DNA of 32,000 nt from NCBI GenBank assembly GCA_965224605.1, contig CBDCZP010000005.1, forward strand, positions 206,069-238,068. The letters are read 5' to 3'. The position numbers were made by a program, and so were the translations under genes. Numbering within the stretch: the first letter of the stretch is position 1; every line of letters starts with the position of its first letter. Under the pieces are notes generated by a model, which saw only the letters and a list, made by a program, of their open reading frames with translations, searched no databases and was not told where the DNA came from. This DNA comes from Thiotrichaceae bacterium. GTDB taxonomy: Bacteria > Pseudomonadota > Gammaproteobacteria > Thiotrichales > Thiotrichaceae. Below, piece after piece: positions 11,955 to 31,820 of the stretch.

Positions 11955-14354
11955 ATGAAAAAAACATCAGTACACCCTTGGTTCCCAGTGTTTCTAGCGA
12001 TAGCCATACTTGCTCTTATTTTGTTATCTGTAGGTTTTTCCCAGCAATATAAATTGGCATTGGGTCAGTCAGTTTATGCAGCTGTTAATCTACTCGTTCA
12101 TGGAAATGAACTGAAACCCGACGATATAGAACACCGTTCAGAGCTAATGATCGCAGGGCAAATTCTTGGCTTTATCGCCATTTATGGCTTCATATTGCAT
12201 ATAGCATGGATTTTCTTGGGTGAAGGTTTACGTAATATATGGATTCAATGGTTTTATAAAAACCACATCATAGTCTGTGACTTGAATCCACAAGGCCAGG
12301 CCTTTATATCCAATCTACGCAACAGTCCTACAAAAGAAAAAATCGTTGTTTTACTGGAAAATGTTGAGAATGAACATGAATCTTTTTGCACACAACACAA
12401 TGCAAAACTTATCCAGGGTAATCCTCGCTTAGTCAATAAACTACATGCCGTTGCCGTGCAACGTGCGAAAGTATTAATTGTTTGTAGTGATAGCTACGAT
12501 ACCAATTTACAAATTGCTCAGGCGGCAGAGAAGAACTTATATAAACGTTCAAAAAGTGTCAGGCCACTAAATTTATACTTGTCGTTAAGCGATTCATTAG
12601 TAATAGATGGAATAGGCAATGAAAATTACAGCCACTTTCTACAACCGGGAGAAAAACTTAATCCTTATGTTTATTCTGCTGAAAACCTGATTGCCCGACA
12701 TTACTTTAATCAATACCCATCTCACACTTGGGCAGATTGGCAGGGTCAAAAACAAGTTCATTTGGTCTTTGCGGGGTTTGGAGCATTAGTAGAATCGCTC
12801 ATCTGTCAATATGCACAGATTTCACCGTATAAAGATTTTCTCCCACCTGTTTTTACATTAGTTGACCCTGAAGCAAAAAAGAAGTGTGCATTATTGATTT
12901 CCCGCTATCCCGCACTTGAAAATGGTAGAGAAAATGAGCATCAAATGATTGGAGGCTTGCATGCTATAGAGTGCCATCAAAGCTTTAAATTAAGTGATGC
13001 TCAACTGCATGAAGTGGCGACAGTCGATGGAGTTACCATACCACCCACGGCCGTCTTGTTCGCTACTCCAGATAATGCATTAAATTTTCAACACGCAGTG
13101 AGTCTTCATCAACAAACCCTACGTTTTAATCGATGGCGTGTACCGTTCTATTCATTTCTTTGTCAGGACATAGGCATACAAGCTTTATTGTCTTCTGCAA
13201 AAAGCAAACATCCAGGGGATCAACTTATTCCTTTTGGTATGGCTGAACAGGTCTTCGATCTTGATACTTTGAATGAAGTGGAATTGAATGCCTGTCTGGT
13301 GCATGAAGCTTATAAAAAGGATCAGATAGAGAAGGGCAATAATAAAGTGCCATCATGGGCATTACTACCTGAAACATATCGTGCGGCAAATCGTCGTGCC
13401 GGAGATCATATTGCAGTAAAGCTCGCTAGCTTGGGCTGCCATATTGAAGCAGGCAAGCCTCTCGTATTAGATGACGCCAGTATATTTGATATTGCCGAAG
13501 AACGATGTGCGGACCTAAGCAAACTAGAGCATCGTTCATGGCGATATGAACGATTACTCAATGGTTGGAGGTTTGGGACTGAGAGAAATGATCGGCGACG
13601 TATACATCCTTCTATTTCATTGTGGGAAGGCCTGTCAGAGGAAGAGCAACAAAAAGACGTCAATCAAATTAAGAACGTAAGAGAAGCACTCAAGCTATCA
13701 CAAAAAGATCATATTGAATCAGACACCGGGTGTTGTGGGCAGAATAATCAGCACACACCAAAACAGAAAATTCCTTTAACGGTTAGAAAAGAAGTGGTAA
13801 TAGGACTTATCGGCCATAATCACCTTACTGTGAATGAAGTAGCAATCGTTAAAGAAAAATTAAAACACGAAATTCATTATATAAAAAAGACATACTCACA
13901 CTATTTCATCACTCTCATTACGCCACTAGCACCAGGTAGCGATTTTCTTTTGGCTCATAATTTATTAGAAAACTTAAAAAAAGAAAAAGATTTGCCTCAT
14001 CGACTATTAATCATTCAAGCGATTACTCTGGACAAAGTCGTGTCCGATTATGAAACAAGCAAGAATGATAAAATTGAAGATGATAAAGAGTGGGGGAAAA
14101 AATTGAAAGACTTCATTGAGGAAAGTGAACAATGTGAAAGCATCATTGACTTAACCCTTGAAGGGGACACACATGAAGAAAATATTAATTCTTATCAAAG
14201 AGCTGCAGACTGGATCGTCGAACGTGCAGATGAATTAATCTCGGTTCATGACCCCTCAAGGGGAAAAGGTGGGAAAGCAGGTACTAGTGATACATTACAC
14301 AAGTGGAAACAGAAAAATTCCAACGTAGAGAGCAGAGTTATTGATATATCTTGA
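11955..14354 (+). CDS. multidomain membrane protein: 2-TM channel-like N-terminus + degenerate RCK/Rossmann-like modules + RyR-domain pair + C-terminal SLOG/LOG-like domain
   Basis: The 799-aa ORF has a good SD ('aaaggtgag') 7 nt upstream. TM helices are 'WFPVFLAIAILALILLSVGF' and 'LMIAGQILGFIAIYGFILHIAWIFL', separated by a short loop 'SVYAAVNLLVHGNE' with no K+ selectivity filter. The Rossmann-like starts are 'NHIIVCDLNPQGQ' and 'VHLVFAGFGALVESL'. See the sub-features for the RyR and SLOG motifs. Confidence 0.85.
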   Translation: MKKTSVHPWFPVFLAIAILALILLSVGFSQQYKLALGQSVYAAVNLLVHGNELKPDDIEHRSELMIAGQILGFIAIYGFILHIAWIFLGEGLRNIWIQWFYKNHIIVCDLNPQGQAFISNLRNSPTKEKIVVLLENVENEHESFCTQHNAKLIQGNPRLVNKLHAVAVQRAKVLIVCSDSYDTNLQIAQAAEKNLYKRSKSVRPLNLYLSLSDSLVIDGIGNENYSHFLQPGEKLNPYVYSAENLIARHYFNQYPSHTWADWQGQKQVHLVFAGFGALVESLICQYAQISPYKDFLPPVFTLVDPEAKKKCALLISRYPALENGRENEHQMIGGLHAIECHQSFKLSDAQLHEVATVDGVTIPPTAVLFATPDNALNFQHAVSLHQQTLRFNRWRVPFYSFLCQDIGIQALLSSAKSKHPGDQLIPFGMAEQVFDLDTLNEVELNACLVHEAYKKDQIEKGNNKVPSWALLPETYRAANRRAGDHIAVKLASLGCHIEAGKPLVLDDASIFDIAEERCADLSKLEHRSWRYERLLNGWRFGTERNDRRRIHPSISLWEGLSEEEQQKDVNQIKNVREALKLSQKDHIESDTGCCGQNNQHTPKQKIPLTVRKEVVIGLIGHNHLTVNEVAIVKEKLKHEIHYIKKTYSHYFITLITPLAPGSDFLLAHNLLENLKKEKDLPHRLLIIQAITLDKVVSDYETSKNDKIEDDKEWGKKLKDFIEESEQCESIIDLTLEGDTHEENINSYQRAADWIVERADELISVHDPSRGKGGKAGTSDTLHKWKQKNSNVESRVIDIS
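13285..13690 (+). other. RyR (ryanodine-receptor repeat, PF02026-like) domain pair within the 799-aa protein
   Basis: The second unit matches the RyR-domain consensus closely by eye: 'LEHRSWRYERLLNGWRFGTERNDRRRIHPSISLWEGLSEEEQQKDVNQI' (H..W......GW.[FY]G.......HP.L..[WY]..L.......D). The first unit is weaker: 'LVHEAYKKDQIEKG....SWALLPETYRAANRRAGDHI'. Confidence 0.65.
13791..14351 (+). other. SLOG/LOG-like Rossmannoid domain (putative nucleotide-ligand sensor) at the C-terminus of the 799-aa protein
   Basis: A beta1-loop 'VVIGLIGHNHL' is followed by 'ITPLAPGSDFLLAHNLL', resembling the G.A.G.D...A helix of DprA/YpsA/LOG-type SLOG domains. A distal Gly-rich loop 'GKGGKAGTSDTL' resembles LOG 'PGG.GT..E'. 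This is motif-level only and not verified by a profile search. Confidence 0.45.
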
Positions 14355-14766
14355 TGCCATTAACATTTTAAATATTTAAATTGAGAATGAATTATTTTTT
14401 TGCTTAAAATGCTAATCAACCGGTTTGTTTTTAATAAAAACAGGTTTTAACCTATTATTGAAATTTCTTAGTGGTTATATGCATAGTTTATACTATGCTT
14501 GATGGGGTATGGGGTATCTCAAACCTATTGGAAATGACGATTAAATCGGTTGATACTGACTAACGTAGAGCGAGAAGAGTGTCTTTTTTCGTTAAAATCA
14601 ACATTAGTATTAACTGATATTAATTAATATTGATTCGAATTGTATAGCTTATTAATTAAGCATTGATTTGTACAATTAATATTAGTATCCTAATTACACC
14701 CCCTCACGATAATAATACAGACGTTTAAAATGCTTGTATTTCAACACAACAAACCACATTTAAATT

Positions 14767-15948
14767 ATGAGTGATATATTCCTAAGCTACGCGAAAGCTG
14801 ATCGCGACGAACTACTCCCCTTGGTAAAGGCACTTGAAGACAAAGGATGGAACATATTTTGGGATCGCAAGATACCCATAGGAAAGACTTGGCACGGTGT
14901 ACTTGCAGCTGAGATTGAAGCCTGTAAATGCATGTTGGTCGTGTGGTCTAATTCATCTGTGCAATCTGAATGGGTACGTGAAGAAGCGCAAATAGGTAAA
15001 GATCGGCAAATTATTTTTCCAGTGAGCCTGGATGGCTCATTACCACCATTAGGTTTCGGTGGTATTCAATCTGCAAATCTTTCAGGTTGGCAAGGTGAAG
15101 AAAACCATCCCGAGTATCAAACATTTATTCGTGAATTGACGGACCATATGGGTTCTATCAAAGGTCAGATCAGAGTTGAGAAACCGGAATCGACTGACAG
15201 TATGAATGTGGCAAATGTAAATAACAGCAATCAATTTGTTGTGCCAGCCGCCGTTTCACCTCAGGCTCATTCTGATCCTTATACTCCAGCAACAGCCTAT
15301 GGAAACATACAATCCATTGCTCCGCAGGAGATACAAAAAACGGGAACCCTTAAAAAACTTATTCTAGGTGGAGTTGCCGCTGCATTTATAGCTGCCATTG
15401 CAACATTCGGTGTGATTCAATATAACGAAAAGGTTGCGTTGGAGTCCGCACAAAAAGAAATGGAACTTGAGCGAAAAAAAGCACAAGAAGCTCAAATATT
15501 AGCTGAAAAAATAAAAAAAGAAGAAGCTATTAAAGCAGAAGCAATAGCCTCTGCTAAAGCTGAAGTAGCGAGAGAAAATGCACGAAGGATAGCGAAAGAA
15601 GATAAAAAAAGGAAAAAATCAGCTGCAAAAGAAGCGGCTAACCTCGCCAAAAAAAGGCAACAAGCGGAAAAACAGATACTAGCTGATATCGCTCGACAAA
15701 ATGCGGCACAGAATGCAAAAATCAGAGCCGATGCAAACCTGAGAGCCAAACAACAACAAGAAGCTCAAAGATTAGCGCGTCAGCGAGCTGATGCCCAAAG
15801 GAGAGCTCAACAGCAGCAAGCACAAGCGGCAGCCAAAGCTCGACAGAAAAAACCTAGTACAAATAATTCTTCTCAAAAAAGCGATGCTTTTGCAGAAGGT
15901 GTAGGTGCAGCAGCAGCCGGGCTGATAGGTAAAAGACTCGGCTTTTAA
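14767..15948 (+). CDS. TIR-domain protein with a single TM helix and a Lys/Ala/Glu/Gln-rich (TolA-like) C-terminal region
   Basis: The N-terminal ~130 aa match bacterial TIR (TIR_2-like): 'DIFLSYAKADRD', 'GWNIFWDRKIPIGKTW', 'CMLVVWSNSSVQSEWVREEAQ' (a conserved Glu is present) and 'IIFPVSLDG'. The TM helix 'LILGGVAAAFIAAIATFGVIQY' spans nt 15358-15423. A ~140-aa low-complexity helical K/A/E/Q region (nt ~15430-15852) follows, and the protein ends in the Gly/Ala tail 'AFAEGVGAAAAGLIGKRLGF'. Confidence 0.85.
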   Translation: MSDIFLSYAKADRDELLPLVKALEDKGWNIFWDRKIPIGKTWHGVLAAEIEACKCMLVVWSNSSVQSEWVREEAQIGKDRQIIFPVSLDGSLPPLGFGGIQSANLSGWQGEENHPEYQTFIRELTDHMGSIKGQIRVEKPESTDSMNVANVNNSNQFVVPAAVSPQAHSDPYTPATAYGNIQSIAPQEIQKTGTLKKLILGGVAAAFIAAIATFGVIQYNEKVALESAQKEMELERKKAQEAQILAEKIKKEEAIKAEAIASAKAEVARENARRIAKEDKKRKKSAAKEAANLAKKRQQAEKQILADIARQNAAQNAKIRADANLRAKQQQEAQRLARQRADAQRRAQQQQAQAAAKARQKKPSTNNSSQKSDAFAEGVGAAAAGLIGKRLGF

Positions 15949-21326: not shown

Positions 21327-21403
21327 TGGTAGGCACGCTCGGATTCGAACCGAGGACTTCCACCATGTCATGGTGGCACTCTAACCAACTGAGTTACGCG
21401 CCT
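21327..21403 (-). tRNA. tRNA-Val (anticodon GAC)
   Basis: The reverse complement folds as a cloverleaf. The acceptor is AGGCGCG/CGTGCCT (one G:U), the D arm ACTC-AGTTGGTTA-GAGT, and the anticodon arm CCACC-ATGACAT-GGTGG (GAC at positions 34-36). The variable loop is AAGTC, the T arm CTCGG-TTCGAAT-CCGAG, the discriminator A, and CCA is encoded. Confidence 0.9.
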
Positions 21404-21757: not shown

Positions 21758-24700
21758 ATGAAATGGATAAAAACCTTATTGGTTCACTTGCTATCGGCTC
21801 GCCTAAATCTGATGAGGACAATAATTACATCAGTACACCGAATAACCTTATTCATTCTGATCAGCCTTTCCTTCTTTAACCTCCCTCAAGCCTATGCAGC
21901 CGCTCCAACTAATGGACTCATTGCACACTGGTTATTAAATGAAGGAAGTGGGACTACAGCGAATGACGATACCGCAAACAACCATGATGGAACAATCAGT
22001 GGTACCAGTTGGAATAGCAACACCTTAACATTTGATGGTAATGATGATTATGTCAATCTGGGAGGGCTTGATGTATCTGGAAGCGCTATAACCTTAAGTG
22101 CCAGAGTAATGTCATCTAATTTAGTCAATTGCGGTGGTAGAGATTGCCGGATTATATCCAAAGCTACAGGCGTTAGCAGTAGTGACCATTATTGGATGTT
22201 AAGTACTGTCAGTGGTGGTAGTGGTACAACAAGGCTACGTTTTCGGCTTAAAGTGAATGGCGTGACAAAAACCTTAGTCTCTACCGCTGCTGGAGAAGTC
22301 GCTGACGATGAGTTGTTTCATATAGCTGCGACCTACGATGGCTCTAACATGCGTTTATATAAAAATGGTGCTGAGGTAGGTAGTTTGGTAGCCAATGGAG
22401 CTATTAATACCGATAGTGGTATTGAAGCGTGGATTGGTGGCAACCCCGATGGTGCAAATTCACGTCCATGGGAAGGCACAATTGCTGATATACGACTCTA
22501 TGATAGAGCACTCACTAGTGCTGAAATCACTCAAGTTAATAATAGCGTATCTGAATCAAATAGTAGTAGTGCAACAGGTGAACTGACTGCACACTGGTTG
22601 TTAAATGAAGGGAGTGGGGCTACAGCTAATGACAGCACCACTAATAATTATGATGGAACAATCAATGGCGCCAGTTGGAATAGCAACACCCTCACATTTG
22701 ATGGAAGTAATGATTATATCAATTTAGGAGTTCTTGATGTATCTGGCGATGCTTTAACCTTAAGCGCCAGAGTCATGTCATCAAATTTAGCAAACTGTAA
22801 TAGTCTAGACTGTCGTATTATATCCAAAGCCTCAAGTACAGCTGAAAACGACCACTATTGGATGTTAAGTACCACCAATAGTGGTGGCGTAGCGAGGTTG
22901 CGCTTCCGACTTAAGGTGAATGGTACAACACAGACCCTAATATCTGATGCCACAGGAGTAGTGGAAGATGATGAGCTATTCCATGTAGCTGCAACCTATG
23001 ACGGCTCTCACATGCGTTTATACAAAAACGGGGTTGAAGTGGGTAGCAAGGTTGCTAGCGGAAACATCGGAACTAATAACAACGTTGAAGCCTGGATAGG
23101 TGGCAACCCTGATGGGGCAGCTTCTCGCCCTTGGGAAGGCACTATTGCTGATGTGCGATTGTACAATCTAACACTCACGGCTGCTGAAATCACGGAGCTG
23201 TCAAGTAGCTCGTCAAGTCCAGGAGTTTGCCCTGGCGTTAGTTCATTTGGTGTGAGGTATATAGAAAGCGATGCTAGTTGGAATTGGATCCAACAATACC
23301 CTAATGGTGCTAATCAACCATTATCAGTGCCAGACTCGAATATCAATCAAATTAAAGCGGCTCTTATAAATGATAAGTTAATACTAGTCATAGACAATAT
23401 GACAGAAAGCGCCCACACCAGTTTTTATATTGATGCAGATAATGATTTATCGACTGGCTATGGCAGCATGGGGGCTGATTACCGTACTGTTGATAACTCA
23501 ATTTATGAATATAACGGAGCTGGAGGAGGCGCTTGGGACTGGCAGGGCTTTGTATGGAAAGGCAATGTAACACACCAAACCTATAAAGAATCTACACGTG
23601 TTGAAATTCCTATCAGCTATTTGTCGCAGTTAGATATCAACACAAATTGTGTAGCAGAGACCCTTACTTTAACAGGTACCCTAAGAGACTTTCACGATAC
23701 ACATCCCGATTTTGAATCCAGTGCAGCTAATTTTGGAGGAAATACTAATGATCCTATAGGTTTAGTTACAGGCATGGTCTCAAATAGCCTTGGATATAAT
23801 AAAAAGCCTATTTTTAATAACGCTAGTAAATCAACCAGTACTGCCCATAACTTTAATCAGTGGTTTAGAGATGACTCAAGTGTTAATCAGTCAACGGCCT
23901 ATAACATCACTCTACAAAAACAGGGAAATGTATATGTCTATGATAGTGCTGTTACACCAGCAGGAAACACCAATAGCCCCGCTGGTTTTTTCCCTCTTGA
24001 TGGGTTGTTGTTTGGAAATGAGGCTGTTCCCGGTAACTTCCCCGCTTGGTATGGAAACAGTTATGCCGACAATGGAAATTATGCTCATAACTACCATCTC
24101 ACCTATGAAATTCATTCCGAATTCGCCTATCAAGGCGGTGAAACCTTTACATTTAGTGGTGATGATGATTTATGGGTATTTATTAATAACCAGCTTGTTG
24201 TAGATCTTGGTGGTATTCATGGCGTTGAACATGGCTCTATTGATCTGGATACCTTAGGATTAACAGTAGGAGAGACCTATAACTTTGATATGTTTTGGGC
24301 GGAGCGACATGTCGCAGCATCGAACATTAAAATTACAACTTCAATAGGATTGGGTGGCGATACCACTGCCCCCACAACTTATGACTATGGTGACGCTCCC
24401 ACTACAGGAACTAGTTATGGAGAGGCCATTCATACGATAGTTGATGGCATTTATCTGGGGTCGGCCTTGCCGGATGCCGATGCTTCAAATCAAGCTACTA
24501 CAGATGCAGATGGCGATGATACTAATGGTGCAGATGACGAGGATGGAATTACTATCCCCGCATTTACCCAAGGCAGCAATGCAAGTATTACAGCTAACGT
24601 AACAGGTGCTGGTGCTTACCTTCAAGCCTGGATAGATTGGAATGGTGATGGAGATTTTAATGATTCTGGCGAACTCATTGCCAGCAACCTTCAAGATAAC

Positions 24701-27700
24701 GATGTTGATGATACAAATAATACAACCGGTACTATAAGTTTTTCTGTGGCGGTTCCCGCTGACGCAACGATGGATCAAACCTATGCACGTTTCCGCTGGT
24801 CAACCACACCTCATTTGAGTGCTGTTACTTTTGATTCAGCTGATATTGCTACAGACGGTGAAGTTGAGGATTATGCAATCACCATTGGAGGAAGCTGTGG
24901 AACTGACACAATTCCTGCGGGCAGCCCAACGGCACATTTAACGGAAGCAAGAGTGTCATGGAATATTACAGGCTCTTTTGGAAATGGCCCTATACGGCTC
25001 AATTCTTTCACTGTCGTTGGAGAACCTGACAAAGTCTTCCATAATCTAATTGTCCCTGATGATGTGAATTACAGTTTTCAATCACCCGCAGCAGGCAACC
25101 AATTTATAACCAATCAGGGAAATAGATGGAAAAATATCACGGACGATACAGAATTTTTTAAAGCGGCAGTGATAGAAGCGAATGCAAGCAGAGACTTGTC
25201 TCATTATCTCTCCCTTGATGGCGGTGGTAGTGGTGGTATCAACAGCACGGATTACACAGAATTTCTCTATAACACACCTATTAAATCCGCAGGGGATCGC
25301 TATATTCTTATCTCAGAGCGATTTGGTAATAACCGAATGGGAGTTGAAGCTTTGGACGCCGACGGTAATGTGATTGGCAACATGGCAGAAGTTATTCCTA
25401 ATACAACCAACGTTGATACGGGCATTACCATACGAACAACACTAACGACCGGACCGCTACAAAATATATTTTTTACTATTTATCCACTAACCGCAATCGC
25501 ACCTCGTGGAGCCGATATACATGGTGTTCGCTTAACCCAAACGGGTGCTACTGGTTATGATGGTGGTGATAGCAAAGTCTTTATTATGGTAGACCCAGAG
25601 ACCATGCCCAAATCCTGTACCTGTGAAGCTGGCTCTGTGGTCATCCCTGACGGAAACCCAACGGCTGCGTTAACTACCGCTCAAGTATCATGGGACATTA
25701 CAGGTACCTTTGGCAATGGACCTATTAACCTTAATTCATTCACAGTAGCAGGTGAACCTAGACCGTTTACTGATATCATCTTGCCAGATTCTGTGGGCTA
25801 TGAATTTCAGGAATTACGAGGAACGCATCAGTTCGTTACCAAACAAGGAGTTGTGGGGCTTAACAGTGAGGATGATCCGGACTTATTTAATACCGCCTTA
25901 GTAACGGCTAATACAAGTAGAGATTTATCCTATTACCTCTCTTTAGATAGAGGGATACACCCTACAGACTACACAGAGTTCTTCTACGATACCCCTATTC
26001 AATCTGCGGGTAATCGCTATGTTCTTATTTCTGAGCGATGGGGTAATAATGGAATGCAAATACAAGCATTAGATGCCAATGGAGACGTTATAAGTGCAGG
26101 TGCTCCGGTCATTGTTAAAACCGATAGCAATACAACCCATATTCCATCTGGGGCAGTCGTTCGTAGAGTTCTTGGGGATGGTTTAGAACAAGAGATATAT
26201 TTTACTATTTATCCTCTTACCGCTATTGCATCTCGAACAACCGAGATATATGGAATTCGGTTGACCCAAATTGGTCCGCACCCAAATGGTGCTACAGATG
26301 GCGGTGATGGCAAGGTCTTTATTATGGTTGATCCTTTAACCATGCCCAACTGTAATGATCGAAGTGATGCCCCTACGTCAGGCACTCAGTATGGAGAAGC
26401 CATGCATACGGTTATTGAAGGTGTCTATCTTGGAGCTAGTGCTCCTGATACCGAAACGACTAGCCAAGCTTCAGCCAATGCTGATGGTGATGATAACAAT
26501 GGCAGTGATGATGAAGATGGTGTTTCAATTCCCGAGCTTACCCAAGGAGTAACTACAACATTTACAGCAACAGTATCGGGTATAGGCGGCTATCTACAGG
26601 GTTGGATAGACTGGAATGGCGATGGTGATTTCATTGATGCCAATGAACAAATCGTTACGAATCTTCAGGACAATACTGCCGATGATGCGGATAACACCAC
26701 TGGCATTATTAGTTTTGATATAAGTGTACCTGATGCTGCAACAACCGCACAAACTTACGCCCGTTTCCGTTGGTCTAACACGTTAAGTCTAGATTCAACC
26801 ACACCAGCAAATAGTGGCGAAGTTGAAGACTACAGTCTTACCATAAGAGAAAATCTGGCATCTTGTTCTATAGATGACCCGACAGCAGGCGTTTACAGCA
26901 CGGCATCTGTTGCTAGTAATTCTAACTATTTATCAACCCATACTCGCATTTACCAAGCTAAATATAATTCAGCTAATTGGGAAGGTCAGTTACGATCCTA
27001 TGATCTAAAAACAACCGCTCAAGATGGTAATGTAAAAACACAAAAGTGGAATGCTGCGGATACCATCAACCGAAGCAGTCGAGAATTATTCACTTATGAC
27101 CCAACTGAAGACGACGATGATAAAGGCATCTCACTAACTTGGGATAATCTCAATAGCCAGCAAAGAGCCAGTCTCATTGATGGGGGTAGTACTGCGTTAG
27201 GTGAAAAGCGTTTAGCCTGGTTACAAGGTGATGATGTAGATGAAGGCACTACTCTACGAGCAAGAACCAAAATTCTCGGCGATATTATTCATTCAAACAT
27301 GGTCTTCAAAGGCAAAACAACTAACTATGGTTATAAACAACTCAGTGGCGCAGAAGGCACAGGATACGCTTCTTTCTTATCCACAAAACTATCCAGTCAA
27401 GAAGCTATATTTGTAGGCTCTAATGACGGTATGCTTCATGCCATTGATGCGGATGATGGCTCAGAATTATTTGCTTATGTCCCTAACGAAGTATTTCCTA
27501 AAATTGCCACACTTAGCAACCTCAAGTACGGCTGTAGTGAGGACGATTGTTTACCGCATGAGTATCTTGTCGATGGCGTTTCATCCTTGGGAGATGCCTA
27601 TTTCGATTCAAGCTGGCATACCGTTTTACTGGGCACATTAGGTTTGGGCGGTAAAGCCATTTACGCATTGGATGTGACGGATGCAGATAATTTCGACAGT

Positions 27701-28855
27701 ACGGATGTTTTATGGGAGATTTCAACCACCCAATCCCCTGATCATCATTCAATATTTGCTAACCACTTGGGTTATAGCCTTCCGAAAGCAAGCGTAATAC
27801 GCATGGCTAATGGAAAATGGGTTGCCATAGTAAGCAACGGTTACAACAGCGAAAGCAATCAAGCGGTTTTGTTTATCATTGACATTGAAACGGGAGAATT
27901 GATTAAAGAGATCAATACAGGTGTTGGCTCAGACATTGATAAGAACGGTCTATCAACACCCACCGCTGTTGATAGTAATGGTGATTCGATCACTGATATT
28001 ATTTACGCGGGCGACTTACTCGGAAACTTATGGGCATTTGATGTCAGCTCTTCTGATCCTGATAATTGGTCAGTTCGCTATAGTGTTGACTCATCCCCCA
28101 TCCCCCTATTCCGTACATGCGAAGATGATGATTGTACAAAACCACAGATCATTACTGCACCTCCCCAAATAGGAAGACATCCCTTGGGTGGATTGATGAT
28201 CTACGTGGGAACAGGAAAGTATTTCGATGTCACAGATAATTATTATGACGGTGCCACTCCTGCTATCAACAGCATTTACGGGCTTCGGGATAATGGCTCA
28301 GCTATTAGCTCTAAGGATCAGCTTGAAGCACAAACCATTCTGGCCGAAATAAACATCAGCGGAACGATAAATAGCCGTGTCACATCCGTAAATACAGTCG
28401 ATTATTCAAGTAAACAAGGTTGGACTATGGATTTACTGAAACCACCTAGCGATACAGCAGAAGGCGAACGCATCATTTCACAAGCCCTGCTGCGCGAAGG
28501 CCGGCTGATATTTACCACTCTGATACCTCCTGAAAATAGTTGTTCTGTCAGTGGTGAAAGCTGGTTGATGGAGTTAAATGCACTCGATGGAAAACGTTTG
28601 GGCGAGATACCGTTTGATACCAATAATGACAAGAGATTTACCGTTGATGATAATGTTGACTATAACGATCAAAGTACCATTATTTCTGGAATACAAGATA
28701 CCTCGTTGGGGGTGATTTTTAGCACCCCTACCATCATTAATCACTCAACGCAGTCTGAAGGTAAATATGTGACGGGTACAAGCGGCACAATAGGTATGTT
28801 TAGAGAATCGGCAAGTCGTATTTCCGGGAGAATGTCCTGGAGGCAATTACGCTAA
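21758..28855 (+). CDS. pilY1: giant modular type IV pilus tip-associated adhesin, PilY1 family (2365 aa)
   Basis: This is a single uninterrupted ORF. A signal peptide is most obvious from the internal Met at 21812 ('[31 protein letters not shown]'). The C-terminal ~640 aa have classic PilY1/PilC propeller motifs: '[11 protein letters not shown]', 'LGDIIHSN', '[27 protein letters not shown]', '[23 protein letters not shown]' and '[25 protein letters not shown]'. It is adjacent to minor pilin genes. The start codon (21758 vs 21812) is uncertain. Confidence 0.85.
   Translation: [2365 protein letters not shown]
21917..23206 (+). repeat. tandem duplication encoding two LamG/concanavalin-A-like lectin domains (period 666 nt = 222 aa)
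   Basis: Copy 1 (~21917-22543) and copy 2 (~22583-23206) are roughly 70-80% identical at DNA level by eye. For example, 'cactggttattaaatgaaggaagtggg' pairs with 'cactggttgttaaatgaagggagtgggg'. The protein motifs are '[14 protein letters not shown]', 'NTLTFDG..DY.NLG', 'DHYWMLST', 'LRFRLKVNG', 'FH.AATYDGS.MRLYKNG.EVGS' and '[8 protein letters not shown].RLY'. Confidence 0.85.
23660..24357 (+). other. fibro-slime / PA14-like domain within the PilY1-family protein
   Basis: The motifs are '[16 protein letters not shown]', 'FNQWFRD', 'FFPLDG', '[45 protein letters not shown]' and '[22 protein letters not shown]'. They match my recollection of the fibro-slime domain family (TIGR02148-type). Confidence 0.6.
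24377..24890 (+). other. GEVED domain copy 1
   Basis: The motifs run 'YDYGDAP...YGEAIH...G.YLG', then the acidic '[16 protein letters not shown]', then '[17 protein letters not shown]', 'YARFRWS', and the terminal 'GEVEDY' (nt 24857-24874). Confidence 0.7.
24891..26355 (+). repeat. two tandem copies of an unrecognised ~245-aa domain (period ~735 nt)
   Basis: Copy 1 reads '[39 protein letters not shown]...[11 protein letters not shown]...[44 protein letters not shown]...[24 protein letters not shown]...[16 protein letters not shown]'. Copy 2 reads '[39 protein letters not shown]...[11 protein letters not shown]...[44 protein letters not shown]...[24 protein letters not shown]...[16 protein letters not shown]'. 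Confidence 0.8.
26356..26850 (+). other. GEVED domain copy 2
   Basis: The motifs are '[15 protein letters not shown]', '[16 protein letters not shown]', '[17 protein letters not shown]', 'YARFRWS' and 'GEVEDY' (nt 26816-26833). Confidence 0.7.
26925..28852 (+). other. PilY1/PilC C-terminal beta-propeller domain with EF-hand-like Ca site
   Basis: See the motifs listed under the CDS. The putative Ca loop 'DSNGDSITD' is at nt 27971-27997. Confidence 0.8.
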
Positions 28856-29028: not shown

Positions 29029-29067
29029 TTGAATAATAAGCAGGCTATGTTAAATAACCCATTTAAA

Positions 29068-29598
29068 ATGAATAAAAAAACAGGTTTTACCTTAATAGAG
29101 TTAATGGTAACCATCTCAGTGGCTTCCATATTTCTGACGATGTCTGTTCCTTCCATGAAAAAAATGCTACAGCAAAATAAAATCACTGCGCTACATAATC
29201 AATTGTTATCTGCGTTAAGTTTTACCCGCAATAATGCTATTACTAGGGGATCATGGGCTACTTTATGCCACAGCAATGCAGCCCGTACCCGCTGTACGAC
29301 ACCCGATTCTTCGTGGGTTAACGGTTGGATTATTTTTCACGACAAAGATAACGATGGCATAGTCGATAGTAACGAAACGATCTTGACTGCGACCAACAAG
29401 CTACCTGCCAGTATCAATATACTCTCATATAGAAGCAGGATCAGTTATAGCTCGCAAGGTTATGCCGTAGGCTATGCTGGAAAGATCACCTTTTGTGACT
29501 CGCAAAATATTGCCACAAAAAAAGGCATGATCGTCTCCTCAAATGGACGAGTTCGAACCGCTACCTCCAGTGATACATTAGCAACTTGCCCGGATTAA
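29068..29598 (+). CDS. fimU: GspH/FimT/FimU-family type IV minor pilin
   Basis: The prepilin leader and N-terminal helix read 'MNKKTG/FTLIELMVTISVASIFLTMSVPS'. The GspH-like body has 'ALHNQLLSALSFTRNNAITRG' and 'GWIIFHDKDNDGIVDSNE'. The symbol is chosen from its position directly upstream of pilV; fimT is equally possible. Alternative starts are ATG 29047 and TTG 29029. Confidence 0.8.
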   Translation: MNKKTGFTLIELMVTISVASIFLTMSVPSMKKMLQQNKITALHNQLLSALSFTRNNAITRGSWATLCHSNAARTRCTTPDSSWVNGWIIFHDKDNDGIVDSNETILTATNKLPASINILSYRSRISYSSQGYAVGYAGKITFCDSQNIATKKGMIVSSNGRVRTATSSDTLATCPD

Positions 29599-29602
29599 CG
29601 AC

Positions 29603-30109
29603 ATGTACAAAAAATGTAAAAGAAACACGGGTTTTTCACTCATAGAAGCACTGATCACTTTGGTCATTTTATCGTTTAGTTTATTTAGTATCGTCACCTT
29701 ACAGGTTAAAGCTCAACAATTTAGTAATACTGCTCGTTTTACTACACAAGCAACATTACTCGCACACGATATGCTTGAACGAATGCGATCAAACCCGGCA
29801 GGGCTATCATCAGGAAACTACAACCTCCCTAGTGCAACGAAACATATAAATTGTTACACACTAACAGGGTGTATTGCTTCAGATATGGCTGAAAATGATA
29901 TGTATGAATGGGCTGGCAACTCATCGAGTAGTGTTTCACACCGGCTACCTAGTAGTGTTGCAACTGTCTGCGTTGATTCTACTTTTGATGATGGCGAACC
30001 CGACAGTTTTGCTTGTGATAATAGCGGCGATATTTATGCCATAAAAATATGGTGGCTAGATTCAAATGCAGAAGTACAACGTTTTGTAACAACGGTAGCC
30101 TTTAAATAA
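29603..30109 (+). CDS. pilV: type IV pilus minor pilin PilV
   Basis: The N-terminus 'NTG/FSLIEALITLVILSFSLFSIVTLQ' is followed by 'ATLLAHDMLERMRSNP', typical of PilV. The protein is 168 aa. Confidence 0.8.
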   Translation: MYKKCKRNTGFSLIEALITLVILSFSLFSIVTLQVKAQQFSNTARFTTQATLLAHDMLERMRSNPAGLSSGNYNLPSATKHINCYTLTGCIASDMAENDMYEWAGNSSSSVSHRLPSSVATVCVDSTFDDGEPDSFACDNSGDIYAIKIWWLDSNAEVQRFVTTVAFK

Positions 30110-31248
30110 TGGATAGAGTAACCCATAATAGTCAAAAAGGTTTAACCCTGATTGAGCTGATGATTGCCATGCTAGTAGGTTCAATATTATTGATCGGCGT
30201 ATACCAGTTATTCTATTCAAGCAAACAAGCAAATACCCTTCTCACTACCGAAGCTGAAATGCAAGAAAACGCACGTTTCGCTTTTTCTGTGATGACTTCT
30301 GTGCTTCAAGAAGCTGGGAACTTTGGATGCCAATCATCTAGCCTAATGACATTAAACTCGCTAGTAAAAACAACCAGTGATACGTTTCGTCCTTGGCGAT
30401 CCATTGAAGGATGGGAAGCTAGCGGTACCCATTACGGTGAATCCTATACTCCAGACCTAAACTCAAGTGTCGGCCAATCAACAGGACTACATTGGTTAAC
30501 CTCTAACCAAGCCACTAAAGACACAGGAATAAAATCCAAAAGTCATTCCGATATAGTAAAAGTCTGGTATACAAAAAAGAAGAAGAGTTCTCTTTCTACA
30601 ATAAACAATGGTGTTTTAACTTTTCCAGCGCTTAACCTCAAACAAGGTGACATTCTCGTCATCAATGATTGTCAAACCGTCACCTTTGCACAAGTTTGCT
30701 CTTGTGATACCAGTGATTCCATTCCTTGTGATGGAGATGATGGAAAAGCTAATATCTCCCCAGACGCCTGCGGTACGCCAGGTAATTATACGTTCAATCA
30801 CACCAATCTTAATCAGGCAACGACTGAAATCAGCGTATTAGAAGAGGCGATATTTTTTGTTGGAAAACGTTCCGACAGCACCACCGGTTATCAAAGTAAT
30901 GCCCCTTCCTTGTATGTTAAACATTTAGGGAATAACTCAACACCCAGCTCCAAGGAAGAAATACTTGAAGGGGTGGAAAGTCTACAAGTTCTATACGGTC
31001 AAGACACGAACAACAATAATTCGCCTAATTACTATGTGAGTGCCAATCAAATAACGGACTGGACAAAAGTCGTTAGCGTCAGAATTAGCTTATTACTTCG
31101 TTCATTAAAAAATAATATAACGATTGGTACACAGGCGATTAGTTTCAATGGCAACTCCATAAATATAGATTCAGATACATCAGATCGTTATCTACGACGT
31201 GTGTTTACATCCACTATCTCTTTACGGAATAGAAATGTTGGATATTAG
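30109..31248 (+). CDS. pilW: type IV pilus minor pilin/assembly protein PilW
   Basis: The start ATG overlaps the pilV stop (TAATG). The N-terminus is 'QKG/LTLIELMIAMLVGSILLIGVYQLF', followed by 'EAEMQENARFAFSVMTSVLQEAG'. The C-terminus 'RRVFTSTISLRNR' is typical of PilW. The protein is 379 aa. Confidence 0.8.
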   Translation: MDRVTHNSQKGLTLIELMIAMLVGSILLIGVYQLFYSSKQANTLLTTEAEMQENARFAFSVMTSVLQEAGNFGCQSSSLMTLNSLVKTTSDTFRPWRSIEGWEASGTHYGESYTPDLNSSVGQSTGLHWLTSNQATKDTGIKSKSHSDIVKVWYTKKKKSSLSTINNGVLTFPALNLKQGDILVINDCQTVTFAQVCSCDTSDSIPCDGDDGKANISPDACGTPGNYTFNHTNLNQATTEISVLEEAIFFVGKRSDSTTGYQSNAPSLYVKHLGNNSTPSSKEEILEGVESLQVLYGQDTNNNNSPNYYVSANQITDWTKVVSVRISLLLRSLKNNITIGTQAISFNGNSINIDSDTSDRYLRRVFTSTISLRNRNVGY

Positions 31249-31301
31249 ATTAATTGAGATCTTACATGCGCAACTAGATAATTAAAGTACAGAGGTAAAA
31301 A

Positions 31302-31820
31302 ATGAAATCACCAACAAAGCAATCAGGAGCAGTATTAATCCTTAGCCTGATCGTCGTTATTATTTTGTCCCTGCTAGTAACTTCCGCAGTGCAAAGCACA
31401 ATATTACAACAGAAAATGGCCACTAATCTACGTGATAAGGATTTGGCTTTTCAATCAGCTGAAACCTCCCTAAAATCAGGAGAGGGTTTTCTATACAACC
31501 GGCATAGAAATGATCTAGCAGGAACCTTTAGTGGTAATAATGGGCTATATACATTTAGCACATCAGCAGATAATGCAAGAACAAACCTTGATACTGAATC
31601 AAGTTGGGAAAACCTAAGCACCGTTCAATCCCACAACTTATATCAAATCATCTCAAGACCTACTTATATTATCGAAGAATTACCTGAAATTATCGCTCCA
31701 GGTGATAGTCTTACCGTTCCTAGACCTGTTTCAGCCACCTATTATCGGGTTACATCAAAATCTAAAGGTGGAACTGATTCTTCACTGGTCATACTACAAA
31801 GTATTTATAAAAAATTATGA
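31302..31820 (+). CDS. pilX: type IV pilus minor pilin PilX (PilX N-terminal domain)
   Basis: An SD 'agaggtaaaaa' lies upstream. The N-terminus reads 'QSGAVLILSLIVVIILSLLVTSAVQSTILQQKMATNLRDKDLAFQSAETSLKSGE', the characteristic non-cleaved PilX N-terminal pattern ending in A..AAE..L. The position after pilW fits. Confidence 0.75.
   Translation: MKSPTKQSGAVLILSLIVVIILSLLVTSAVQSTILQQKMATNLRDKDLAFQSAETSLKSGEGFLYNRHRNDLAGTFSGNNGLYTFSTSADNARTNLDTESSWENLSTVQSHNLYQIISRPTYIIEELPEIIAPGDSLTVPRPVSATYYRVTSKSKGGTDSSLVILQSIYKKL

Follow-up and report, generated by a model that had tools for sequence, protein, structure and literature searches.

What does a bacterial membrane protein that resembles a potassium channel do with a domain of the ryanodine receptor, and what connects it to the TIR enzyme encoded beside it? 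These questions are raised by a stretch of 32,000 nucleotides from a Thiotrichaceae genome (assembly GCA_965224605.1, contig CBDCZP010000005.1, positions 206,069 to 238,068 of the forward strand), which we call the window. It contains an open reading frame (11955–14354, + strand) that begins with ATG and encodes a protein of 799 residues, here called the effector, and a TIR gene lies downstream of it. We propose, with a probability of about 0.55, that the two genes form a Thoeris-like pair, in which an ADP-ribose (ADPR) signal made by the TIR protein would gate an RCK/RyR channel. The proposal is built on features observed computationally, namely the domain architecture, the conservation of the ligand-contact residues, the catalytic residue of the TIR and the recurrent adjacency of the two genes; from these we infer which ligand is bound, that the protein forms tetramers and conducts ions, in which direction it is gated and that it serves in defence.

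Signalling from TIR enzymes to effectors in Thoeris is a fast-growing field of bacterial immunity, and the direct action of cyclic ADP-ribose (cADPR) on ryanodine receptors is a decades-old question in animal physiology; to our knowledge, direct gating of these receptors by cADPR is unproven in animals. In 2026, binding of cADPR isomers by RyR Repeat12 had been shown only for phage counter-defence proteins, and the RyR-domain proteins of Thoeris biology have so far been phage-encoded antagonists.

Domain architecture of the effector

A full-length AlphaFold2 model of the monomer was built from an alignment of 50 sequences, and has a pLDDT of 90.3 and a pTM of 0.89. It begins with a transmembrane (TM) helix at residues 9–32 and a short helix at 36–49, followed by a low-confidence loop and helix turn (50–62) and by one long helix (63–100) that comprises the second TM helix and a linker. 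Two alpha/beta domains (105–262 and 267–433), an all-helical module (436–585), a disordered linker (586–609) and a six-stranded alpha/beta module (610–797) complete the chain. The four-part architecture proposed in a preliminary description of this DNA is thus present, and the strings quoted there (SVYAAVNLLVHGNE, CDLNPQGQ and AGFGALVESL) all lie where they were placed. The features of the gene are as follows.

11955–14354, + strand: whole open reading frame, 799 residues, with a two-TM pore-like module, tandem RCK domains, a RyR four-helix module and a SLOG-like module
11979–12050, + strand: TM helix 1, residues 9–32 (AlphaFold2 helix 9–32; hydropathy peak at residues 13–23)
12060–12140, + strand: pore-helix-like segment, residues 36–49 (SVYAAVNLLVHG), and 'filter' loop with short helix, residues 50–62 (NELKPDDIEHRSE), lacking TVGYG
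12141–12254, + strand: TM helix 2 or inner helix, residues 63–100 (a single AlphaFold2 helix into RCK domain 1; hydropathy peak at residues 71–83)
12258–12740, + strand: RCK domain 1, residues 102–262 (Pfam Slo-like_RCK and TrkA_N)
12747–13253, + strand: RCK-like Rossmann domain 2, residues 265–433, with AGFGALVESL at residues 273–282 (AlphaFold2 beta-alpha-beta elements E267–E427; no Pfam match)
13260–13454, + strand: RyR half-unit 1, residues 436–500, degenerate (AlphaFold2 helices 436–459 and 473–492)
13482–13709, + strand: RyR half-unit 2, residues 510–585, canonical PF02026 (predicted contacts H526, W529, R533, R544, H551, K567 and D568)
13710–13781, + strand: linker, residues 586–609 (pLDDT 52–77, no secondary structure; of variable length in the alignment)
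13782–14351, + strand: Rossmann-like, SLOG-like module, residues 610–799 (motifs IGLIGHN, TPLAPGSDF, DLTLEG and GGKAGT)

When the whole protein was searched against PDB sequences, RyR repeats were the sole matches, down to 4e-11. The N-terminus, residues 200–500 and the C-terminus, scanned separately, gave no Pfam match (E ≤ 10). Conservation is given below as counts from a 50-member family alignment with a mean identity of 25%.

The RyR module and its predicted ligand pocket

The helical module had been described as a pair of RyR units, the second near consensus at about nucleotides 13524–13670. Pfam bears out the second, at residues 518–575 (nucleotides 13506–13679), with an E-value of 8.2e-9 and a score of 36 bits against a cutoff of 27.4 (2.4e-9 in a separate scan), and its best PDB match is 6uhi (E = 4.2e-11). 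The first unit (residues ~436–500) gives no Pfam match, though the model shows it as helical and its conservation is strong: H450, W468 and R481 are present in 50/50 members and Y453 in 49/50, and with R476, N479, R480, D484 and H485 the set is conserved in 44–50 of the 50. Compared by eye, it resembles the alpha1–alpha2 portion of the phage protein RyR-Tad.

According to two preprints of 2026, RyR-domain proteins of phages bind signals made by TIRs (2'/3'cADPR and cADPR), and one of the proteins cleaves them (PMC13232231; 10.64898/2026.06.04.730250). Together with nucleotide sensing by the RY12 domain of RyR1, an ADP sensor with a pocket formed by W882, R886, R897 and H904 (PMC13642953), this gives experimental backing to the parallel with (c)ADPR and ryanodine receptors that had been drawn for the window protein. 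In the phage protein RyDEP, residues H75, W78, H100 and D117 contact ADPR or 3'cADPR (PMC13232231). The contacts of RyR-Tad are H129/W132, K147/H154 and K170/D171; it binds 3'-gcADPR with a dissociation constant of 43 nM, and 2'-gcADPR and cADPR with values below 1 uM (10.64898/2026.06.04.730250). Of eight phage homologues that have the same residues, six bind the signals without cleaving them (PMC13232231).

All three pockets can be traced onto the effector. A BLASTP alignment of residues 129–182 of RyR-Tad (gp68) with effector residues 526–580 (E = 9e-7) is gapless through the contact positions and places them at H526, W529, R544, H551, K567 and D568. The spacing of the RyDEP contacts (His-x-x-Trp, then Lys/Arg at +18, His at +25 and Lys-Asp at +41/42) equals that of the window protein, and an offset taken from the PDB alignment equates W882, R886, R897 and H904 of RyR1 with W529, R533, R544 and H551. 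With the exception of K567, the contact residues are 88–100% conserved (H526 49/50, W529 50/50, R544 49/50, H551 44/50, D568 48/50), and few positions anywhere in the protein are better conserved than those of the pocket. The RyR module is thus the best-supported ligand site, with binding predicted from the sequence. A tblastn search of phage genomes with RyR unit 2 gave two weak matches only.

The partner TIR gene

The TIR gene is separated from the effector gene by 412 bp.

14355–14766, no strand assigned: intergenic gap between effector and TIR genes, AT-rich, 412 bp
14767–15948, + strand: TIR gene, 393 residues, with a TIR_2 domain (E = 5.7e-21), a TM helix and a K/A/E/Q-rich coiled-coil tail
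14767–15156, + strand: TIR_2 domain, residues 1–130, with the invariant glutamate E73
15358–15420, + strand: TM helix of the TIR protein, residues ~198–218

The catalytic glutamate (E73 in the window) is invariant in 12/12 partner TIRs, and PADLOC gave weak matches of the window TIR to ThsB and PDC-S66. Its build is unusual in that the single TM helix is followed by a TolA-like, low-complexity coil of about 170 residues rich in K/A/E/Q. On the + strand of the gap no terminator-like site was found, and promoter-like matches are no commoner there than in shuffled sequences. The gap also holds an inverted repeat (GCATAGT-TTAT-ACTATGC, 14478–14500) and TTAATTAATATT-like repeats (14600–14690), which may be regulatory sites or may have arisen by chance.

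TIR linkage across relatives

We then searched for related loci with a 17-sequence alignment, and analysed the neighbourhoods of related genes at 39 non-redundant loci, annotated by crude picks of open reading frames. Genes within two of the RCK-RyR gene were counted as near, and those farther away within 10 kb as far. A TIR gene occurs within two genes at 11/39 loci; counted by gene, TIRs make up 12/141 near and 1/340 far genes, an odds ratio of about 31 (Fisher p = 2.8e-6) for loci that are not phylogenetically independent. Among 84 genes that directly adjoin distant relatives, TIR_2 is also the Pfam family seen most often. The suggested link between effector and TIR is real. It is found again, with TIRs of unrelated build, in alpha-, beta- and gammaproteobacteria, as listed here (MAG, metagenome-assembled genome).

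Thiothrix MAG: TIR+YHS
Ca. T. anitrata: two giant TIR proteins
T. nivea: TIR+coil+Pkinase
Thiothrix-like locus L009: truncated TIR, 17–493, with only the first ~47 TIR residues, beside a short-form effector
Rubrivivax: TIR+NACHT+TPR
Duganella and others: TIR+WD40
alphaproteobacterial and Ectothiorhodospiraceae MAGs: plain TIR_2

The truncated TIR of L009 is probably a decayed partner. The giant TIR proteins of Ca. Thiothrix anitrata (L001, 155–7813) are tandem paralogues of 1113 and 1418 residues with an N-terminal TIR and a long, otherwise unannotated repeat region, and the pair is divergent from a long-form effector gene. In the T. nivea orthologue of the window TIR, KAEEERKRA repeats precede a Ser/Thr kinase and a TM helix. 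Divergent to it stands a gene (L011, 10001–11440) for a soluble RCK-RyR protein of 479 residues, lacking the TM helices and the C-terminal module; a standalone C-terminal module is encoded about 100 kb from this RCK-RyR gene, and a CapV-like patatin gene follows it after 16 bp (L012, 10001–11818). In this species the parts look as if they had been split.

Forms without the C-terminal module are TIR-paired also at L031 and L038, as at L011, with L041 borderline. Since the linkage persists without the C-terminal module, and even without TM helices, the RCK-RyR core appears to be the TIR-linked part. Because the effector adjoins TIR enzymes across many bacteria, we consider it probable that it is of a new type and that ADP-ribose signals from the TIR gate it.

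The neighbours of the relatives are of a defence type and rich in PADLOC families, with CapV-like phospholipases (3e-58 against CBASS effector models), SAVED/TIR, ThsB, IetA and TRIP13. SLATT, NUDIX and TPR-S/trypsin proteins also occur there, and patatin is recurrent. Short-form RCK-RyR genes of Thiothrix occupy a variable spot beside ilvD (L007/L016, 7360–12704; L014, 11736–13352). At one such ilvD locus there is a NUDIX gene upstream, then genes for a 295-residue protein, TPR-S+MAP3K_TRAF_bd+Trypsin_2 and SLATT_1, and in T. caldifontis patatin and SLATT genes lie directly downstream of the short-form gene.

The pore-like N-terminus and tandem RCK domains

Hydropathy identifies exactly two hydrophobic segments of TM length, centred at residues ~13–23 and 71–83. 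The description of a two-TM pore-like module without a potassium filter is correct: no filter of the form T-V/I-G-Y/F-G was found, the residues after the pore-like helix being HGNELKPDD, and Pfam Ion_trans_2 gave zero matches even at E ≤ 10. Between the TM helices, where SVYAAVNLLVHGNE occupies residues 39–52, the model has short helices at 36–49 and 55–60, with a pLDDT of 62 for residues 51–60. A pore-helix-like motif resembling lYxTLxLF is conserved here across the 50 divergent homologues, followed by a loop that is variable in length and sequence. We compared this helix with the pore helix of MthK.

Two degenerate RCK domains had been proposed next in the chain. This description, too, is correct: both folds are there, as judged by Pfam and Foldseek. 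The degeneracy of the first domain is seen in the window's clade but not in the wider family. Pfam identifies Slo-like_RCK (1.4e-8) and TrkA_N (1.9e-6) at residues 102–195, both exceeding the curated cutoffs. The GxGxxG motif of this domain has become CDLNPQGQ (residues 108–115), and L134 stands where an acidic residue would follow beta2. The Thiothrix-like clade to which the window belongs lacks both the motif and the acidic residue (D109, N111 and L134 in the window), whereas in the wider family GxGxxG is mostly intact (G 44/50, G 33/50, G/A 50/50) and the acidic residue is present. In a Foldseek search of the PDB with the full model, GsuK ranked first (E = 1.9e-9, with full chains aligned over ~520 columns), ahead of the TrkA gating ring, then MthK and then Slo1/BK; the tandem-RCK matches span 410–520 columns. 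Against the viral library the first match was a phage potassium-channel protein, and many phage RyR proteins also matched. On the model, the N-terminal half is a module derived from potassium channels with a tandem RCK apparatus, and it may conduct ions.

It has to be asked whether the TM helices could serve as an anchor only, with the RyR pocket, the SLOG-like module or both sequestering or hydrolysing the TIR product, so that the protein would be a host-side brake or would process a signal for, for example, a CapV-like patatin. The glycosidase His/Asp dyad of RyDEP is kept at the equivalent positions, the T. nivea members beside TIR genes are soluble and lack TM helices, the standalone C-terminal module lies immediately upstream of a patatin gene while patatins recur beside the family, and the filter region is unconserved. 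We nevertheless rate this explanation as improbable: TM helix 2 is continuous into the tandem RCK domains as in RCK-gated channels, and the structures matching best are the full channel chains of GsuK and MthK; the pore-helix-like motif is kept across the 50 divergent members; and most of the phage homologues with the same pocket residues (6/8) bind rather than cleave (PMC13232231).

The RCK results bear on a different explanation, according to which the protein is a housekeeping channel for cations or potassium, whose RCK ring and RyR pocket sense ADP, ATP or NAD+ to tune the membrane potential, the TIR being incidental or modulating local NAD+/ADPR. Its best structural relatives are indeed regulated by nucleotides (GsuK with ADP, TrkA with ATP-gamma-S), the RyR1 RY12 domain selectively binds ADP (PMC13642953), GxGxxG and the acidic residue of RCK domain 1 are retained in the greater part of the wider family, the context of the window is of a housekeeping kind and the majority of family loci have no adjacent TIR. 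The enrichment of adjacent TIRs of unrelated build (odds ratio about 31, p = 2.8e-6) is at odds with it, as are the other neighbours, which are effector-type conflict genes (CapV-like patatin, SLATT, TPR-S/trypsin), the absence of a potassium filter and the loss of the dinucleotide motif of RCK domain 1 in the window's own clade. We regard a housekeeping channel as unlikely.

The C-terminal SLOG-like module

In the AlphaFold2 model the C-terminal module is a six-stranded alpha/beta fold of six beta-alpha units. Its family motifs are iGlxGH, TPLAPGxD and LIAvxD...GGTxExLxW, of which the GxxG, PLAPGxD and GGT parts are conserved at 92–100% (G620 50/50, P660 50/50, G661 49/50, D663 47/50, G776 46/50). 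By our own reading, the Gly-rich loops after beta1 and beta2 and the GGxGT-like loop before the last helix are SLOG motifs.

The module had been described as SLOG-like. This holds for its Rossmann-like fold and for sub-threshold matches of its homologues to the SLOG clan, but the window's own sequence gives no significant SLOG match: none was found with Pfam (E ≤ 10), NCBIfam or PADLOC. Profile searches of the PDB with 7 and 29 module sequences returned no SLOG structure (ThsA, TRPM, LOG) at significance, and Foldseek with the isolated module found nothing in the PDB at E ≤ 1e-3, TRPM8 matching weakly with a TMq of 0.43. Among 54 module homologues, the only recurrent Pfam matches besides RyR are to SLOG-clan families, all below the gathering scores: DNA_processg_A in four (best 4.9e-5), YAcAr in three (0.002), YpsA in three (0.025) and cpYpsA in one (0.048). 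In the search of the viral library with the full model, phage proteins annotated as 'DprA-like' and 'YspA cpYpsA-related SLOG' matched with a probability of 1.0 and a TMt of 0.58–0.65, the aligned region not being reported. We consider it likely that the module is a remote member of the SLOG superfamily, of the DprA/YpsA branch.

A profile of the module recovers 365 representative clusters, 98 of them at E ≤ 1e-10. Most of the 365 are proteins of ~800–880 residues with the module likewise at the C-terminus, and the four sampled are TrkA_N+RyR+module. Proteins fused in this way are therefore common in the family, and the fusion is not the oddity for which the preliminary description took it. 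The module also occurs alone, fused to SLATT_3 (P0158), with STAND/AAA (P0149) and N-terminally in TPR-S plus cyclase-like proteins (P0088). The last arrangement, an N-terminal module with TPR-S and a C-terminus that weakly resembles class III nucleotidyl cyclases (Guanylate_cyc, E = 0.029), is shared by P0088, P0112 and about eight similar proteins of ~820 residues, which may constitute a separate nucleotide-signalling system. We also considered whether the short forms (~590 residues) have the module as a separate adjacent gene, and rejected this; at L007 the gene after the short form encodes an unrelated 295-residue protein with no Pfam match, and in T. nivea the standalone module is about 100 kb distant.

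As the preliminary description implied, (c)ADPR might instead be sensed by the SLOG-like module, in the manner of ThsA or of the MHR1/2 region of TRPM2; the module would then gate a pore permeable to Ca2+, and the RyR pair would be purely structural. The SLOG domain of type I Thoeris binds 3'cADPR (10.64898/2025.12.03.692087), and the strongly conserved SLOG-like motifs, the remote similarity to the SLOG clan and the fusion of the module to other signalling and effector parts (SLATT_3, TPR-S plus cyclase-like, STAND/AAA) would fit such a role. The members that lack the module and are still TIR-linked do not fit it (L011, L031 and L038; borderline at L041, and with a truncated TIR only at L009). 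Moreover, the complete, experimentally defined set of gcADPR contacts lies in the RyR unit, and the module has no significant match to the ThsA, TRPM or LOG structures. We regard this as the least probable of the explanations considered.

Proposed mechanism

In the mechanism that we propose, the membrane-anchored TIR protein, with its catalytic glutamate intact, would convert NAD+ to an ADP-ribose-derived signal, for example a cADPR isomer; in relatives, the parts fused to the TIR (NACHT-TPR, WD40, kinase, YHS, giant repeats) may act as variable sensors. The signal would bind the four-helix, Repeat12-type RyR pocket through the predicted contacts H526, W529, R533, R544, H551, K567 and D568. 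This module is predicted to rest on the tandem-RCK gating apparatus, which a continuous helix links to the inner helix of a putative two-TM pore, derived from potassium channels and with a decayed selectivity filter. Ligand binding would then open a probably poorly selective cation pore, and the resulting depolarisation could stop growth or kill an infected cell. The SLOG-like module may provide a second nucleotide-handling site, either as a co-sensor or as a part that elsewhere partners CapV-like patatin phospholipases.

Several points weigh against a TIR-gated channel. The 'filter' loop differs in sequence and length between family members, and no other stretch of the N-terminal model has so low a confidence; a monomer model cannot demonstrate a pore; and T. 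nivea-type members (P0014–16, ~480 residues) are TIR-adjacent and lack TM helices, so that not every member of the family has a pore. Since the RyR1 RY12 domain binds ADP/ATP, the ligand of the window protein could be a housekeeping nucleotide, and since H526 and D568 match the catalytic dyad of RyDEP, the site could hydrolyse the signal instead of transducing it. The two genes, with the gap between them, may be transcribed separately, and at 28/39 loci there is no TIR within two genes. No PADLOC model matches the effector, and the window is an ordinary chromosomal context (ClpA/S, PfkB, DsbA-like, exopolysaccharide genes, pilins), not a defence island.

A more far-reaching proposal, which we put forward tentatively and at rather less than even odds, is that the effector is a host RyR Repeat12 receptor that directly gates a pore derived from potassium channels on TIR-made cADPR isomers, and would thus be a prokaryotic prototype of the idea that cADPR opens a RyR-domain channel. 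RyDEP and RyR-Tad would then be mimics or derivatives of the host pocket, and the eukaryotic RY12 domain an inherited sensor of ADPR or adenine nucleotides. If true, a cellular channel-like protein with a RyR pocket tied to a TIR would be the missing host receptor and a new class of Thoeris effector, and would suggest a source for the phage RyR sponges. It would also offer a small and tractable system (about 800 residues, with a two-TM pore) for following the path from an ADPR-derived ligand through a RyR domain to channel opening.

Further features of the window

Elsewhere in the window, a protein of 2365 residues resembling PilY1, with Laminin_G_3, PA14 and GEVED domains, is encoded at 21758–28855. 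Just upstream of its gene is a tRNA-Val (21327–21403, − strand), and minor-pilin genes (GspH/FimT-like, Tt1218-like and PilW) follow it at 29029–31820.

Comparison with known systems

Among RCK channels, the effector is closest to GsuK and MthK. It shares with them the order of TM1, pore helix, TM2 and RCK, and, as in GsuK, there are two RCK domains per subunit. In contrast to both, it has no TVGYG sequence and no Ion_trans_2 match, and the dinucleotide motif of RCK domain 1 is lost in its clade. The RyR and SLOG-like modules are found in no solved RCK channel.

A published system of similar layout is type X Thoeris, described as a TIR with an ion-channel effector, ThsK, of verified antiphage function and with the signal unknown (10.64898/2025.12.03.692087). 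Both are two-gene pairs of a TIR and a membrane effector derived from potassium channels. We recovered ThsK from the cited scaffold (L051, 3358–3984), and found it to be a protein of 208 residues with an Ion_trans_2 match (2.5e-5) and nothing else. It lacks the RCK, RyR and SLOG-like parts of the window effector, and the type X TIR falls into a ThsB-type cluster that also holds those of type II Thoeris; it is not a TIR_2. An identification of the window effector with ThsK was therefore rejected, and the window pair is, by its sequence, different from the published type X. A search of plasmids for type X returned only type II TIR+macro operons.

In the Thoeris survey, with its large table covered in part, we met no account of a TIR paired with a host RCK-RyR effector, and none of TIR with RCK/RyR effectors was found in papers from the Aravind laboratory or in papers on both 'Thoeris' and 'ryanodine'. 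Prokaryotic RY12 proteins are mentioned in passing as 'putative tetrameric cation channels', with no link to TIR (PMC13642953). Within the scope of this literature search, the effector type of the window pair is previously undescribed.

Like ThsA of type I Thoeris (SIR2-SLOG) and the candidate effectors 'SLOG Patatin' and 'SLOG and 4TM', the window protein would couple a SLOG-type Rossmann sensor of cADPR isomers made by a TIR to a toxic output. Relatives of its C-terminal module adjoin CapV-like patatins or are fused to SLATT, which may be compared with the two candidates. It differs from ThsA in that curated SLOG models gave no significant match for the module, the output is channel-like and there is an additional RyR pocket.

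The pocket residues of eukaryotic RyR RY12 are kept. As in the eukaryotic channels, a peripheral domain that senses nucleotides would be mounted on a tetrameric cation channel, here a predicted one. In contrast to a six-TM channel of ~5000 residues, the effector has two TM helices and an RCK ring, its pore is unrelated, and it carries no other domain specific to RyR or TRPM.

The closest comparison for the RyR domain itself is with RyDEP (gp78 of mycobacteriophage DyoEdafos) and RyR-Tad (gp68 of Pectobacterium phage CB1), which share its PF02026 four-helix fold. Their contacts are identical or conservatively replaced in the window protein at the same spacing, and structural matches to phage RyR proteins have a probability of 1.0. 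Unlike the window protein, both are small and form soluble dimers, and they block defence by sponging or cleaving the signal of the host. The RyR domain described here is encoded by the host, lies in a channel-like membrane protein and is paired with a TIR, which suggests that it acts as a receptor and not as an antagonist.

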